Position numbers and translations under genes: made by a program. Below are positions 1 through 6,183 of a stretch of DNA of 6,183 bases, piece by piece. Origin of the DNA: a virus (Duplodnaviria; Heunggongvirae; Uroviricota; Caudoviricetes); the IMG/VR virus record IMGVR_UViG_2579778660_000006. One strand, 5' to 3'. Within the stretch, counting starts at the first letter, position 1. The number at the start of each line of letters is the position of its first letter. Under the pieces are notes generated by a model that had not been told where the DNA came from, did not search any database, and saw only the letters and a program-made list of their open reading frames with translations.

Positions 1-906
1 GTGGATAGCGCACGCGCCCTTATTGCCCGGGGATGGGGAGTAAGCTTAGTCAGCCGTTGTCTCCGGGTGTCGCGTGCGCAGTTGCACGTCATTCTCAGAC
101 GAACCGATGACTGGATGGATGGCCGCCGCAGTCGTCACACTGATGATACGGATGTGCTTCTCCGTATACACCATGTTATCGGAGAGCTGCCCACGTATGG
201 TTATCGTCGGGTATGGGCGCTGCTTCGCAGACAGGCAGAACTTGATGGTATGCCTGCGATCAATGCCAAACGTGTTTACCGGATCATGCGCCAGAATGCG
301 CTGTTGCTTGAGCGAAAACCTGCTGTACCGCCATCGAAACGGGCACATACAGGCAGAGTGGCCGTGAAAGAAAGCAATCAGCGATGGTGCTCTGACGGGT
401 TCGAGTTCTGCTGTGATAACGGAGAGAGACTGCGTGTCACGTTCGCGCTGGACTGCTGTGATCGTGAGGCACTGCACTGGGCGGTCACTACCGGCGGCTT
501 CAACAGTGAAACAGTACAGGACGTCATGCTGGGAGCGGTGGAACGCCGCTTCGGCAACGATCTTCCGTCGTCTCCAGTGGAGTGGCTGACGGATAATGGT
601 TCATGCTACCGGGCTAATGAAACACGCCAGTTCGCCCGGATGTTGGGACTTGAACCGAAGAACACGGCGGTGCGGAGTCCGGAGAGTAACGGAATAGCAG
701 AGAGCTTCGTGAAAACGATAAAGCGTGACTACATCAGTATCATGCCCAAACCAGACGGGTTAACGGCAGCAAAGAACCTTGCAGAGGCGTTCGAGCATTA
801 TAACGAATGGCATCCGCATAGTGCGCTGGGTTATCGCTCGCCACGGGAATATCTGCGGCAGCGGGCTTGTAATGGGTTAAGTGATAACAGATGTCTGGAA
901 ATATAG
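1..906 (+). CDS. insD: IS2 transposase OrfB (InsD), DDE integrase-core domain; in intact IS2 it is expressed as an OrfAB fusion by frameshifting
   Basis: 301-aa [24 protein letters not shown]...[11 protein letters not shown], recognised as IS2 InsD. Stop codon 904-906 lies inside the right terminal repeat, as expected for IS2. Confidence 0.93.
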
Positions 907-917
907 GGGCAAATCCA
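877..917. repeat. IS2 right terminal inverted repeat (about 41 bp, extent approximate)
   Basis: Terminal sequence ...TAGGGGCAAATCCA ends at 917. IS2 terminal repeats are about 41 bp. The left repeat is outside the window, so pairing cannot be shown here. Confidence 0.7.
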
Positions 918-1098
918 CCCACTCCCCCAAACCAATAAAAAAGATGCCGGAGGACAAAAAACCCAATGGAACAACGGGATATCTGTCAAAAAAAGACGTT
1001 CCATTAAAGACAAACAACGCAGCGCCAACAACTGTAAGCGCTTTATACCAGTAATCAATTTTCATGTTCTTAAGCGGATTTATTGGTGGTTGCGACAT
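918..1098 (-). pseudogene. 5' fragment (first 60 codons) of a small membrane-protein gene with two predicted transmembrane helices, interrupted by the IS2 insertion
   Basis: Minus-strand ORF starts at ATG 1098-1096 and reads MSQPPINPLKNMKIDYWYKALTVVGAALFVFNGTSFFDRYPVVPLGFLSSGIFFIGLGEW. It then runs straight into IS2 terminal-repeat sequence at 917, where the frame continues 13 codons to a stop inside IS2. Two clean hydrophobic segments support a real gene. An SD-like AAGGA sits 11 nt upstream of the ATG. Identity unknown. Confidence 0.4.
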
Positions 1099-1107
1099 TG
1101 CTTAATG

Positions 1108-1137
1108 AATCCTTAAAACTGTGGTGATTTTAAGGAT
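1108..1137. promoter_or_regulatory. Inverted repeat ATCCTTAAAA-N9-TTTTAAGGAT (10-bp arms, 11 bp counting the flanking pair), candidate operator or SD-sequestering hairpin in the divergent region
   Basis: Arms 1109-1118 and 1128-1137 are exact reverse complements and extend one further base pair outward (1108/1138). On the minus-strand transcript one arm contains the AAGGA Shine-Dalgarno-like element of the 918-1098 gene. Confidence 0.3.
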
Positions 1138-1375
1138 ACCACCTCGCCTGACGTGGTTAAAAGCAGGCACACAACACGAAAGCGCACGGCGAAGTTCGTC
1201 TCACTGTACGGTGTCGTTAAATTTAATTCGACCGTGCGCTTCCGGTTGTGGCAACCCGCGAAATGGCGCGGCGGTAAGTATGGCGGGGGTATTCCTTCCC
1301 CGTTGAGGACACCGAGTTGTCAGGTTGACCATACGCTTAAGTGACAACCCCGCTGCAACGCCCTCTGTTATCAAT

Positions 1376-1428
1376 TTTCTGGTGACGTTTGGCGGTATCA
1401 GTTTTACTCCGTGACTGCTCTGCCGCCG
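1376..1428 (+). ncRNA. dicF: DicF-family Hfq-dependent small RNA (prophage-encoded antisense inhibitor of ftsZ translation)
   Basis: TTTCTGGTGACGTTTGGCGGTATCAGTTTTACTCCGTGACTGCTCTGCCGCCG matches my recollection of the 53-nt E. coli DicF over its whole length, with possibly one difference at the last base. It is followed by TTTTT. Gene order dicF-dicB-ydfD and the ~174 bp dicF-dicB spacer match the Qin prophage dic operon. Confidence 0.85.
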
Positions 1429-1433
1429 TTTTT
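1391..1433 (+). terminator. DicF 3' stem-loop plus U-tract (intrinsic-terminator-like 3' end)
   Basis: GGCGG (1391-1395) pairs with CCGCC (1423-1427), enclosing an internal structured region, followed by T5 at 1429-1433. Confidence 0.55.
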
Positions 1434-1602
1434 AAAGTGAATTTTGTGATGCGGTGAATGCGGCTAAGCGCACGCGGAACAGTTAAAACCAAAAACAGTG
1501 TTATGGGTGGATTCTCTGTATCCGGCGTTAATTGTTAACTGGTTAACGTCACCTGGAGGCACCAGGCACTGCATCACAAAATTCATTGTTGAGGACGCGA
1601 TA

Positions 1603-1791
1603 ATGAAAACGTTATTACCAAACGTTAATACGTCTGAAGGTTGTTTTGAAATTGGTGTCACTATCAGTAACCCTGTATTTACTGAAGATGCCATTAACAA
1701 GAGAAAACAAGAACGGGAGCTATTAAATAAAATATGCATTGTTTCAATGCTGGCTCGTTTACGTCTGATGCCAAAAGGATGTGCACAATGA
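1603..1791 (+). CDS. dicB: DicB cell-division inhibitor (acts through MinC), 62 aa
   Basis: ATG at 1603 preceded by GAGGA (1591-1595, 7-nt spacing). Product MKTLLPNVNTSEGCFEIGVTISNPVFTEDAINKRKQERELLNKICIVSMLARLRLMPKGCAQ matches my recollection of E. coli DicB in sequence and length. The 97-aa ORF from 1498 in the track is an unsupported upstream extension of the same frame. Confidence 0.85.
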   Translation: MKTLLPNVNTSEGCFEIGVTISNPVFTEDAINKRKQERELLNKICIVSMLARLRLMPKGCAQ

Positions 1792-1979
1792 ATTCAGCAT
1801 TTGCGCTTGTTCTGACAGTTTTTCTTGTTTCCGGAGAGCCAGTTGATATTGCAGTCAGTGTTCACAGGACAATGCAGGAGTGTATGACTGCAGCAACCGA
1901 ACAGAAAATTCCCGGTAACTGTTACCCGGTCGATAAAGTTATTCACCAGTATAATATCGAAATCCCGGCAGGTCTTTAA
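1788..1979 (+). CDS. ydfD: YdfD-family small membrane protein (Qin prophage lysis protein family), 63 aa
   Basis: ATG at 1788 overlaps the dicB stop (ATGA, 1788-1791) and is preceded by AAGGA (1775-1779). Product MNSAFALVLTVFLVSGEPVDIAVSVHRTMQECMTAATEQKIPGNCYPVDKVIHQYNIEIPAGL has an N-terminal hydrophobic helix, and its length and sequence fit my recollection of YdfD. Confidence 0.8.
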   Translation: MNSAFALVLTVFLVSGEPVDIAVSVHRTMQECMTAATEQKIPGNCYPVDKVIHQYNIEIPAGL

Positions 1980-2072
1980 AACAGTTCCGTAATAAATATC
2001 CGGTTTCATTCTTATATGCCAGCAATGGCAGGGATTTGTTCATCCTTAAATCTGTCATGAGGTTAAAACAAA

Positions 2073-4544
2073 ATGAGTAAAGTCTTTATTTGCGCCGCTA
2101 TTCCTGACGAACTGGCAACAAGGGAAGAAGGCGCTGTGGCTGTAGCCACAGCCATTGAAGCTGGCGACGAACGCCGTGCTCGAGCAAAATTTCACTGGCA
2201 ATTCCTGGAACATTATCCGGCTGCTCAGGACTGCGCTTATAAATTTATTGTCTGCGAGGATAAACCTGGCATACCCCGCCCTGCCCTCGATTCATGGGAT
2301 GCTGAATATATGCAGGAAAACCGCTGGGATGAGGAGTCTGCTTCTTTTGTCCCGGTTGAGACTGAATCCGATCCGATGAACGTCACTTTTGACAAGCTGG
2401 CCCCTGAAGTACAGAACGCTGTCATGGTTAAGTTCGACACATGTGAAAACATCACCGTTGATATGGTTATTAGCGCACAGGAATTGTTGCAGGAAGACAT
2501 GGCAACATTCGACGGACATATCGTTGAAGCGTTGATGAAAATGCCAGAAGTTAACGCCATGTATCCGGAGCTTAAGTTGCACGCCATTGGGTGGGTTAAG
2601 CATAAATGTATTCCTGGTGCTAAATGGCCCGAAATTCAGGCAGAGATGCGCATCTGGAAAAAACGTCGCGAAGGTGAACGCAAGGAAACCGGAAAATACA
2701 CGTCTATTGTTGATCTCGCCCGCGCCAGAGCCAATCAACAGTACACTGAAAATTCAACAGGAAAAATCAGCCCGGTCATTGCTGCCATTCATCGCGAATA
2801 CAAGCAGACATGGAAAACACTGGATGACGAACTGGCCTACGCTCTCTGGCCTGGTGATGTGGATGCCGGAAACATTGACGGCAGCATCCATCGCTGGGCA
2901 AAAAATGAAGTTATCGATAACGACCGCGAAGACTGGAAGCGTATCTCGGCATCAATGCGCAAACAGCCTGATGCCCTTCGCTACGACCGCCAAACTATTT
3001 TTGGCCTTGTCCGTGAACGTCCGATCGACATTCACAAAGATCCCGTAGCACTGAACAAATATATCTGCGAATACCTGACGACAAAGGGCGTGTTTGAGAA
3101 TGAAGAAACAGACCTGGGCACTGTTGATGTTCTCCAGTCATCAGAAACACAAACTGATGCAGTGGAAACTGAGGTATCTGATATCCCAAAAAATGAAACC
3201 GCGCCGGAAGCTGAACCATCTGTAGAGCGTGAGGGGCCGTTCTATTTCCTCTTCGCAGATAAGGACGGAGAAAAATACGGTCGCGCAAACAAACTTTCTG
3301 GTCTGGATAAGGCACTGGCTGCTGGCGCCACTGAAATCACAAAAGAAGAATATTTTGCCCGAAAAAATGGCACATACACGGGCTTACCGCAAAATGTAGA
3401 TACCGCTGAAGATTCAGAACAACCAGAGCCGATAAAAGTTACCGCTGACGAAGTAAACAAAATTATGCAGGCAGCCAATATCATCCAGCCTGACGCCGAT
3501 AAGTTGCTTGCTGCATCACGTGGTGAATTTGTTGAAGGGATTAGTGACCCGAATGATCCGAAATGGGTTAAGGGGATCCAGACCCGCGATTCTGTGAACC
3601 AGAACCAGCATGAATCGGAACGGAACTACCAAAAAGCGGAACAAAACAGCCCAAATGCGTTACAAAACGAGCCAGAAACGAAACAGCCTGAATCAGTGGC
3701 GCAACAGGAAGTGGAAAAAGTCTGCACCGCCTGCGGTCAGACCGGCGGCGGCAACTGCCCTGATTGTGGCGCGGTAATGGGCGACGCAACATACCAGGAA
3801 ACATTCGATGAAGAGTATCAGGTTGAAGTTCAGGAAGATGATCCGGAGAAAATGGAAGGCGCTGAACATCCACACAAGGAGAACACTGGCGGCAATCAGC
3901 ATCACGATAGCGATAATGAAACTGGCGAGACGGCAGATCACTCAATTAAGGTGAACGGTCATCACGAAATCACATCCACCAGCAGGACGTGTGACCATCT
4001 AATGATCGACCTTGAAACCATGGGAAAAAATCCTGATGCCCCGATCATCTCAATAGGTGCAATATTTTTCGATCCGCAAACCGGAGATATGGGACCGGAA
4101 TTTAGTAAGACTATCGATCTGGAAACTGCTGGCGGAGTCATTGATCGGGACACCATTAAATGGTGGCTTAAGCAATCACGCGAAGCGCAATCTGCCATTA
4201 TGACCGATGAAATCCCGTTAGATGATGCACTGTTACAATTGCGGGAATTTATCGACGAAAACTCCGGTGAATTTTTTGTTCAGGTCTGGGGAAATGGAGC
4301 CAACTTCGACAACACGATTTTGCGCCGTTCATACGAACGGCAGGGGATCCCCTGCCCGTGGCGTTACTACAACGATCGCGATGTACGCACAATCGTTGAG
4401 CTGGGGAAAGCCATAGACTTCGATGCCAGAACGGCTATTCAATTCGAAGGTGAGCGCCATAATGCACTTGATGACGCCCGTTACCAGGCAAAATACGTTT
4501 CAGTTATCTGGCAAAAACTGATCCCGAGTCAGGTTGATTCTTAA
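2073..4544 (+). CDS. Large prophage early-region protein (823 aa): N-terminal domain of unknown function, acidic linker, Cys4 zinc ribbon, His-rich linker, C-terminal DEDDh (DnaQ/RNase T/Rv2179c-like) 3'-5' exonuclease domain
   Basis: Uninterrupted 2472-nt ORF with GAGG about 10 nt upstream of the ATG. The C-terminal ~180 aa carry DEDDh motifs in the right order: Exo I MIDLETMG (D646, E648), Exo II WGNGANFDNTIL (D746), Exo III HNALDDARY (H796, D801). CTACGQTGGGNCPDCG (aa 551-566) is a CxxC-N7-CxxC ribbon. Residues 477-506 (KLLAASRGEFVEGISDPNDPKWVKGIQTRD) resemble a segment I associate with Rac RecE, and the N-terminal ~300 aa resemble what I recall of the truncated K-12 ydfE product. Both recollections are unverified. 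Confidence 0.9.
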   Translation: MSKVFICAAIPDELATREEGAVAVATAIEAGDERRARAKFHWQFLEHYPAAQDCAYKFIVCEDKPGIPRPALDSWDAEYMQENRWDEESASFVPVETESDPMNVTFDKLAPEVQNAVMVKFDTCENITVDMVISAQELLQEDMATFDGHIVEALMKMPEVNAMYPELKLHAIGWVKHKCIPGAKWPEIQAEMRIWKKRREGERKETGKYTSIVDLARARANQQYTENSTGKISPVIAAIHREYKQTWKTLDDELAYALWPGDVDAGNIDGSIHRWAKNEVIDNDREDWKRISASMRKQPDALRYDRQTIFGLVRERPIDIHKDPVALNKYICEYLTTKGVFENEETDLGTVDVLQSSETQTDAVETEVSDIPKNETAPEAEPSVEREGPFYFLFADKDGEKYGRANKLSGLDKALAAGATEITKEEYFARKNGTYTGLPQNVDTAEDSEQPEPIKVTADEVNKIMQAANIIQPDADKLLAASRGEFVEGISDPNDPKWVKGIQTRDSVNQNQHESERNYQKAEQNSPNALQNEPETKQPESVAQQEVEKVCTACGQTGGGNCPDCGAVMGDATYQETFDEEYQVEVQEDDPEKMEGAEHPHKENTGGNQHHDSDNETGETADHSIKVNGHHEITSTSRTCDHLMIDLETMGKNPDAPIISIGAIFFDPQTGDMGPEFSKTIDLETAGGVIDRDTIKWWLKQSREAQSAIMTDEIPLDDALLQLREFIDENSGEFFVQVWGNGANFDNTILRRSYERQGIPCPWRYYNDRDVRTIVELGKAIDFDARTAIQFEGERHNALDDARYQAKYVSVIWQKLIPSQVDS

Positions 4545-4555
4545 TGTTCAACTGT

Positions 4556-4587
4556 CGCCGGTTGTGACTGGTATTCTGCAACCGGCG
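4556..4587 (+). other. GC-rich stem-loop (9-bp stem CGCCGGTTG/CAACCGGCG, 14-nt loop) just downstream of the 823-aa gene; not followed by a U-tract
   Basis: 4556-4564 is the exact reverse complement of 4579-4587. No T-run follows, so it is not a canonical intrinsic terminator. It may be an RNA processing or stability element, or a protein binding site. Confidence 0.4.
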
Positions 4588-4616
4588 CTCGTCTAATGTA
4601 AGAGATAAAGAAATCG

Positions 4617-4868
4617 ATGAGCGAAGTAATCATGATTGTCTCTCCCGGCAAATGGGTATCCGAAGAGCAGTTAATTGCGCTGAAAGGAATAAAAAAAGGT
4701 ACGTTAAAAAAGGCCCGGGAAAAATCGTTTATGGAAGGAAGGGAATATAAGCATGTCGCTCATGACGGTATGCCATGGGATAACAGTCCATGCTTTTACA
4801 ACCTGGAAGAAATTGATCGCTGGATTGAGCGCCAGGCATCAGCAAGACCAAGACGTCATCTTACTTGA
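4617..4868 (+). CDS. xis: Excisionase-like protein (lambda Xis-type winged-helix recombination directionality factor), 83 aa
   Basis: Small ORF immediately upstream of and co-oriented with the integrase. The segment KKAREKSFMEGREYKHVAHDG resembles the conserved GREY(L/K) wing region of lambda Xis. The start is uncertain: ATG 4617 has a weak RBS, and ATG 4632 is an alternative. Confidence 0.65.
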   Translation: MSEVIMIVSPGKWVSEEQLIALKGIKKGTLKKAREKSFMEGREYKHVAHDGMPWDNSPCFYNLEEIDRWIERQASARPRRHLT

Positions 4869-4887
4869 CTAAAAGCCACACTAACTA

Positions 4888-6183
4888 ATGAGAGAAGTTG
4901 AAATGAAATATCCGACAGGCGTGGAAAACCATGGAGGGAAATTACGTATCTGGTTTGTTTATAAAGGCGTAAGAGTCAGGGAAAACCTGGGGGTTCCTGA
5001 CACAGCAAAAAACAGGCGCGTTGCAGGTGAGCTACGCGCCTCTGTTTGTTACGCAATAAAAACTGGTGTTTTCGACTATGCAAAACAGTTTCCCTCCTCA
5101 CGCAATCTGGAAAAATTTGGTGAGGCCCGACAAGATTTAACCATAAAAGAACTGGCTGAAAAATTTCTGGCACTGAAAGAAACTGAAGTCGCAAAAACAT
5201 CACTCAACACATACCGTGCCGTCATCAAAAATATCCTGAGCATAATCGGTGAAAAAAATCTTGCCTCATCGATTAATAAAGAAAAATTACTGGAGGTTCG
5301 TAAAGAGCTACTGACTGGATACCAGATCCCCAAAAGTAACTATATTGTTACACAACCAGGGAGATCGGCTGTAACTGTAAATAATTACATGACAAATCTT
5401 AACGCCGTGTTCCAGTTTGGTGTTGATAACGGTTACCTGGTAGATAACCCGTTTAAGGGGATCTCGCCATTAAAGGAATCAAGAACCATTCCGGATCCTC
5501 TTTCGCGGGAGGAATTCATCCGTCTTATCGATGCGTGCAGAAATCAGCAAGCCAAAAATTTATGGTGTGTTTCTGTTTATACTGGCGTTCGCCCTGGTGA
5601 GCTGTGTGCACTTGGATGGGAGGACATAGATCTGAAAAATGGAACAATGATGATCAGGAGAAATTTAGCAAAAGACCGTTTCACGGTACCAAAAACACAG
5701 GCGGGAACCAATCGGGTCATTCATCTTATTAAGCCAGCAATCGACGCTCTCCGGAGTCAGATGACATTAACGAGACTGAGCAAAGAGCATATCATTGATG
5801 TTCACCTCAGAGAGTATGGCAGAACAGAAAAACATAAATGCACCTTTGTTTTTCAACCTGAAGTGTCAGCGAGAGTAAAAAATTATGGTGACCATTTTAC
5901 CGTTGACTCAATAAGGCAGATGTGGGACGCAGCGATAAAACGTGCCGGACTCCGCCATCGAAAATCATATCAGTCGAGACATACTTATGCCTGCTGGTCG
6001 CTGACAGCTGGTGCTAACCCGGCATTTATAGCAAACCAGATGGGCCATGCAGATGCGCAAATGGTATTTCAGGTATACGGAAAATGGATGTCTGAAAACA
6101 ATAATGCACAGGTAGCTTTGTTAAATACACAGTTAAGCGAGTTTGCCCCAACCATGCCCCATAACGAAGCAATGAAAAATTAA
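4888..6183 (+). CDS. int: Tyrosine site-specific recombinase (phage integrase) with N-terminal arm-binding-type domain, intact
   Basis: 431-aa ORF. The C-terminal catalytic region has the tyrosine recombinase signature in order: R in VYTGVRPGELCALGWEDIDL, K in KTQAGTNRV, HxxR in SRHTYA, and the H...Y box MGHADAQMVFQVYGKW. The N-terminus KYPTGVENHGGKLRIWFVYKGVRVRENLG is typical of the arm-binding domain of enterobacterial prophage integrases. The true start may be ATG 4903 (MKYPTG...), which has a slightly better RBS. The stop is the last codon of the window. Confidence 0.95.
   Translation: MREVEMKYPTGVENHGGKLRIWFVYKGVRVRENLGVPDTAKNRRVAGELRASVCYAIKTGVFDYAKQFPSSRNLEKFGEARQDLTIKELAEKFLALKETEVAKTSLNTYRAVIKNILSIIGEKNLASSINKEKLLEVRKELLTGYQIPKSNYIVTQPGRSAVTVNNYMTNLNAVFQFGVDNGYLVDNPFKGISPLKESRTIPDPLSREEFIRLIDACRNQQAKNLWCVSVYTGVRPGELCALGWEDIDLKNGTMMIRRNLAKDRFTVPKTQAGTNRVIHLIKPAIDALRSQMTLTRLSKEHIIDVHLREYGRTEKHKCTFVFQPEVSARVKNYGDHFTVDSIRQMWDAAIKRAGLRHRKSYQSRHTYACWSLTAGANPAFIANQMGHADAQMVFQVYGKWMSENNNAQVALLNTQLSEFAPTMPHNEAMKN

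Follow-up and report, generated by a model that had tools for sequence, protein, structure and literature searches.

An IS2 element upstream of the intact dicF, dicB and ydfD genes of an apparent Qin-type Escherichia coli prophage

Introduction

How is a set of genes that can block division and lyse the cell held in check when no repressor gene lies beside it? The question is raised by the DNA analysed here, a 6,183-nucleotide stretch of a Caudoviricetes record (IMG/VR IMGVR_UViG_2579778660_000006, referred to in full length as the window), in which the original prediction, made from the letters alone, had placed a complete three-part growth-inhibitory cassette of the DicF small RNA, DicB and YdfD. 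The three genes form an already-known, widespread and genetically characterised division-inhibition module, and the dicBF operon they belong to is the early-left, PL-like operon of the Qin-type prophage, induced in K-12 in stationary phase, by urea and by heat. In K-12 this operon gives a polycistronic transcript from dicBp, a DicA-repressed promoter upstream of ydfA and the only one found by primer extension, Northern blots and RT-PCR; an older study cited in the same work had proposed a further promoter 5' of dicB, for which no evidence was obtained there (PMC10448788).

The dicF, dicB and ydfD genes

Rfam, Pfam, NCBIfam and near-identity to K-12 agree in identifying DicF, DicB and YdfD at 1376-1979 (Table 1), and with such near-identity to annotated genes a chance match is not an issue. 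Judged from its sequence, the segment almost certainly represents the dicF-dicB-ydfD part of the dicBF operon in a Qin-type lambdoid E. coli prophage located beside rspB. As predicted, the trio is intact, contiguous and in operon order, with ribosome-binding sites for both coding genes (GAGGA at 1591-1595, 7 nt 5' of the dicB ATG, and AGGA at 1776-1779, 8 nt 5' of the ydfD ATG) and an ATGA overlap of the dicB stop and ydfD start at 1788-1791. Alignment to K-12, the check proposed at the outset, revealed no substantial divergence: 52 of 53 nucleotides are identical in DicF, all 62 residues in DicB (188/189 nt) and 61 of 63 residues in YdfD, where the differences are V6A and D55Y.

Table 1 Features of the window
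Feature	Position	Strand	Basis and remarks
IS2, 3' 917 bp	1..917	+	insD/orfB frame 1-906; right inverted-repeat tip ...GGGGCAAATCCA ends at 917
Small membrane-protein ORF, truncated	877..1098	-	ORF lists; in the place of K-12 ydfC
Long RNA hairpin 5' of dicF	1170..1250	+	Fold; candidate RNase III substrate
dicF, 53-nt DicF sRNA	1376..1428	+	Rfam RF00039; K-12 alignment
dicB, 62 aa plus stop	1603..1791	+	K-12 identity; Pfam PF05358; NCBIfam NF049927; ATG 1603, stop 1789-1791
ydfD, 63 aa plus stop	1788..1979	+	K-12 identity; Pfam DUF1482; ATG 1788, stop 1977-1979
Terminator-like hairpin, weak	2017..2030	+	Pattern scan; in the 93-nt gap 3' of ydfD
Exonuclease, 823 aa	2073..4544	+	Intact form of K-12 pseudogene ydfE; next gene of the early-left operon
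Excisionase, 83 aa	4617..4868	+	Pfam DUF1233, putative excisionase
Tyrosine integrase	4888..6183	+	Intact form of K-12 pseudogene intQ; Pfam Arm-DNA-bind_2 and Phage_integrase

The match of DicF to its Rfam family lies at 1377-1428 on the plus strand and covers model positions 1-52 of 52 (72.5 bits, gathering score 48, E = 4.7e-15), and the RNA ends in a terminator hairpin (1391-1427) followed by U5 at 1429-1433. Its sole difference from the 53-nt K-12 dicF is C53G in the last base. We rejected this change as a functional variant: the minimum free energy structure is the same for the window and K-12 alleles (-16.6 vs. -15.9 kcal/mol), RNAduplex pairs both in the same way with the ftsZ leader (-60 to +30; -38.9 vs. 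-38.5 kcal/mol), this leader being that of K-12 (the ftsZ, minC and ispG genes of the host lie outside the window), and nucleotide 53 is unpaired in the predicted duplex. G53 is present in 14 of 16 relatives examined, and the change is an ordinary polymorphism. In K-12, base pairing between the 3' region of DicF and the ribosome-binding site of ftsZ represses translation, and the 5' end regulates xylR (PMC5069750); by identity, the window's DicF would likewise repress FtsZ synthesis by pairing at that site through its 3' half, and its 5' end would act on other mRNAs such as xylR. Two IS2-bearing relatives carry other point changes in DicF, C4T in the 5' seed (L004, position 7797) and G16A in the first base of the terminator stem (L003, position 8428; alignment A1 holds both changes, in columns 40 and 52). 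These may be ordinary polymorphism or early decay, in a small sample of two.

DicF is cut from the polycistronic RNA by RNase III, yielding a 190-nt species, and by RNase E, yielding the 53-nt species (PMC10448788). Folding of 1159-1433 gave a minimum free energy of -101.9 kcal/mol (z = -3.1), with the stem of the long hairpin 5' of dicF present in both the minimum free energy and the centroid structures. On this model the hairpin could be the RNase III site, which would put the 5' end of the 190-nt species near 1239, in the 3' arm. A separate, sub-threshold match to STnc100 (RF02076) extends over the full model at 1426-1635 (34.5 bits vs. a gathering score of 47, E = 8e-5) and runs from the sequence between dicF and dicB into the 5' end of dicB. 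Its probable basis is a structured leader of dicB, conserved and shared with Salmonella prophages.

DicB matches its Pfam family over positions 1-62 of 62 (136.8 bits, cut-off 27) and its NCBIfam family at 132.8 bits (cut-off 100). By identity to K-12 it would prevent Z-ring assembly together with MinC and would inhibit ManYZ-dependent entry of phage lambda. Phage exclusion had been put forward for DicB and DicF together, and only the DicB half of that proposal stands, as lambda resistance arises from a MinC-dependent effect of DicB on the ManYZ inner-membrane receptor, whilst deletion of dicF or ydfD has minimal effect on resistance (PMC6832061).

YdfD matches DUF1482 (PF07358) at 90 bits (cut-off 25) over residues 4-61, and its V6A/D55Y allele is shared by 11 of the 16 relatives (L001, L007-L016). 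Its termini (MNSAF... and ...IPAGL) are the same as in K-12. YdfD binds IspG and causes lysis when expressed ectopically, and lysis is abolished by L63A and by terminal deletions, even of single residues (PMC8835842). Extrapolating from K-12 YdfD, the V6A/D55Y protein would be expected to bind IspG and to lyse the cell when overproduced.

The claim that toxicity is three-part thus needs qualification: YdfD lysis was shown ectopically (PMC8835842), whereas on induction of the whole operon dicF and dicB account for most of the toxicity, and deletion of both relieves growth inhibition in the operon context (PMC5069750); DicB has been described as the main source (PMC6832061).

Prophage context and distribution

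Read across the window and its relatives, the order is IS2, dicF, dicB, ydfD, exonuclease, excisionase and integrase, followed by rspB; every reading frame from dicB through the integrase gene is intact. The integrase gene marks the end of the prophage, and in relatives rspB comes next, on the attachment side of K-12 Qin. The weak hairpin downstream of ydfD, a putative terminator, would fit the finding of a ydfABC-dicFB-ydfD transcript but of no longer species (PMC10448788). In the exonuclease, a Pfam Rv2179c-like 3'-5' exonuclease domain occupies residues 642-813, the protein belongs to PHROG 2082 (exonuclease), and the YdfE_N and YdfE_C families are on record for an identical protein. PADLOC gave no match for the exonuclease, DicB or YdfD.

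Gene order, spacing and overlap are as in Qin of K-12 MG1655 (dicF b1574, dicB b1575, ydfD b1576), which occupies the same chromosomal position beside rspB. Homology to K-12 Qin starts at 1159, with 98.2% DNA identity over 1159-2839, and at the level of alleles the window differs from K-12 by the DicF and YdfD substitutions given above. The surroundings differ more. In K-12, ydfA-ydfB-ydfC lie directly upstream, whereas the window has there a 240-bp segment (919-1158) that is unrelated to ydfC and without K-12 counterpart, and IS2 at 1-917. Downstream in K-12, an IS2 fragment joins ydfE to intQ and both are pseudogenes; the exonuclease, excisionase and integrase genes of the window, by contrast, are intact. 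Homology to K-12 (L002, 5079-7709) ends at window position 2839 and resumes at 5024, the gap being filled by an IS2E fragment, and 5024-6183 is 99% identical to intQ. From this alignment, the K-12 pseudogenes look as if they arose when ~2.2 kb was lost, in an IS2-associated deletion, from an arrangement such as the window has.

The module is common. A 1.2-kb query around the cassette was found in 4757 of 5426 complete E. coli genomes (~88%), the median being two sites per genome and the maximum ten. The 604-bp segment 1376-1979 is also covered in full in deposited lambdoid phage genomes at 96.7-99.5% identity, with Escherichia phages Tritos (OV696610, where it is annotated as DicF, DicB and YdfD), HannyBb and PhiR42_1 at 99.0-99.5% and mEp460 at 96.7%; these four are complete phage genomes, whereas the window is an IS-interrupted prophage arm. 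Phage lambda has a functional analogue in Kil, a single small protein of the PL operon that transiently blocks FtsZ ring formation. The analogy carries no sequence relationship, and the dic module differs in combining an sRNA with a MinC-dependent protein.

Close relatives are IS-free Qin-like prophages of other E. coli (for example strain 7/2, NZ_CP023820; GCA_050372775), with 99.8-99.96% identity over 919-6183; at the upper end only 2 of 5265 positions differ (99.96%). They lack IS2, and their DicF (G53), DicB and YdfD alleles and 823-aa exonuclease are identical to those of the window. Immediately upstream these contigs encode a ydfB remnant, ydfA, a DicC-family gene (NF007282, 162 bits) and a DicA-family gene (NF007257, 239 bits), with a Rem antirepressor gene further away.

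Elsewhere, between hokD and the DUF977/replication genes, Qin-like prophages that are otherwise collinear have a slot with differing cargo (L001 2976-4615, L005 935-1960, L007 3508-5295, L015 3284-5077, L004 1186-2492), which includes a KwaB-like protein with a partner, RelA/SpoT-domain, DUF7380/EMARD_N and GmrSD_N proteins, and a NUDIX and HAD hydrolase pair. The slot looks like a variable hot spot for defence genes.

The IS2 insertion

The one local peculiarity of the window is a strain-specific IS2 insertion upstream of dicF that truncates a neighbouring ORF. The element, of which the window contains the 3' two-thirds, is in the same orientation as the cassette and ends 458 bp upstream of dicF. 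Its segment matches Pfam rve, rve_3 and HTH_21, positions 212-918 are 100% identical to K-12 IS2E, and RefSeq annotates it in relatives as 'IS3-like element IS2 family transposase'. Homology to IS-free genomes begins at 919, just past the right end of IS2, and the junction was placed at 917/918. Position 1 of the window is the GTG of insD, and the left end of IS2 and its target duplication are therefore outside view. The exact junction was absent from the 5426 complete E. coli genomes and from GTDB species representatives, and IS2 was absent from all contigs that code for the identical 823-aa exonuclease.

IS2 occupies the position where relatives hold the ydfB remnant, ydfA and the DicA-like and DicC-like genes. 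Neither dicBp with contiguous ydfA nor adjacent dicA and dicC occur in the window, where IS2 stands in their place, and neither the ORF list nor the Pfam matches contain a DicA/DicC-like or other HTH repressor. The original prediction had correctly reported that no such gene is visible in the window; its main omission was the tie to IS2, for the repressor is absent from the window because IS2 sits between the cassette and the control region. The window begins within IS2, and that the source genome has dicA and dicBp is therefore an assumption drawn from its relatives. With intact genes on one side of IS2 and the expected position of dicC-dicA-dicBp-ydfA on the other, the cassette is separated from its native control region.

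The truncated ORF runs on the minus strand, antisense to the operon. Its native part (919-1098) encodes the N-terminal 60 residues and its final 13 codons lie within IS2, whereas in IS-free relatives it is intact with 106 aa and three hydrophobic segments (L001, 8860-9180, minus strand). The 106-aa ORF has no match in Pfam, PHROGs, NCBIfam or PADLOC and is unannotated in RefSeq, with some gene callers giving instead a plus-strand ydfB read-through over it; from its sequence it could be a moron-type membrane protein. Just upstream of its ATG (1098-1096), a perfect 10-bp inverted repeat at 1109-1137 (ATCCTTAAAA, a 9-nt loop, TTTTAAGGAT) lies over a likely AAGGA ribosome-binding site.

This disruption of a neighbour, together with the loss of contact with the only known promoter and the DicF point variants of other IS2-bearing relatives, would suit a decaying remnant, in which the genes still look intact but the locus has been transcriptionally dead since IS2 arrived and now serves no function. 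The window differs from IS-free relatives by just 2 mismatches in 5265 bp, however, and the frames from dicB to the integrase gene are intact, so the insertion is recent and has left no visible decay; we consider this reading rather doubtful.

Similar insertions are rare. Using a query of the IS2 right end plus flank for co-oriented insertions and a mirror query for opposite ones, we found ~7 and ~6, respectively, among the 5426 genomes (~13 in all), and a hot spot, an orientation bias or selection for IS2 upstream of dicB was rejected on these rare and unbiased counts. In three other genomes IS2 was inserted independently, in the orientation of the operon, between dicBp and dicB, and a separate 5-bp target duplication marks each event. 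In GPEC1035 (NZ_CM142796; L005, 6245-7996) and two sister genomes, IS2 separates dicF from dicB, ends 46 bp short of the dicB ATG and has the target duplication GGCAC; for the displaced upstream leader the RefSeq 'partial DicB' CDS looks like an annotation artefact.

Transcription of the interrupted operon

The description of the trio as a complete, self-contained cassette does not hold. These genes are the distal part of an operon for which dicBp is the only promoter found in K-12 (PMC10448788); the trio is not autonomous, having no known promoter of its own, and the operon is interrupted here. On the plus strand, a consensus scan, a type of scan that can miss real promoters, found no promoter-like site of at least 9/12 in 861-1610, and no plus-strand promoter was found by scanning 850-2100. 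The sole plus-strand promoter-like match upstream of dicB is a weak one at 1411-1438 (GTGACT, 16-bp spacer, TAAAGT; 8/12), which overlaps the DicF terminator.

Could the element itself supply the promoter? In the IS3 family, IS2 included, the right inverted repeat contains an outward-facing -35, which can combine with a -10 in the flanking DNA into a fusion promoter (PMC9330008), and the right end of IS2 abuts the cassette side. A promoter within IS2 or at its right end, or read-through from the transposase promoter, would then drive DicA-independent, low constitutive expression of DicF, DicB and YdfD. At spacers of 15-19 bp from the right-end -35 (TGGAAA, 896-901), however, there is no -10, the hexamers matching TATAAT at 0-2 of 6 positions, and we rejected a fusion promoter as the likely driver for want of a usable -10. 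The empty scan of 850-2100 also speaks against an IS2-driven cassette, and a constitutive toxic operon would be counter-selected, which makes this explanation improbable.

The insertion may, in contrast, be neutral, with DicA-repressed dicBp upstream of IS2 reading through the 1.3-kb element and regulation remaining normal. IS2 is co-oriented with the operon, a scan of 850-1375, covering the end of IS2 and the adjoining sequence, gave no plus-strand site resembling an intrinsic terminator, and the candidate RNase III hairpin and the entire dicF processing region are kept downstream of IS2, all of which would allow such read-through. Against this, dicBp upstream of IS2 is itself an assumption, and a transcript would have to cross ~900 nt of poorly translated insD. 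Such sequence would be expected to be polar through Rho-dependent termination, the classical polarity of IS2. We regard normal regulation as unlikely.

Instead, with neither a promoter-like site nor an IS2 fusion promoter found, the cassette is probably attenuated in its expression and at least partly uncoupled from DicA. We infer that most likely only read-through, crossing IS2 or coming from it, still transcribes the cassette.

Implications

Beyond correct annotation the significance of the locus is small, as the segment is a textbook prophage module present in most E. coli genomes, and the rarity of comparable insertions and their occurrence in both orientations give no sign of a general phenomenon. 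There is a slim chance that IS2 turned a repressor-controlled toxic operon into a DicA-independent locus that makes low levels of DicF, DicB and YdfD by read-through from IS2. Were this so, the insertion would represent a domestication step, in which phage exclusion by DicB could stay whilst the risk of lethal derepression is gone. The strain-specific IS2 offers a small natural experiment on the disarming or rewiring of toxic prophage operons.
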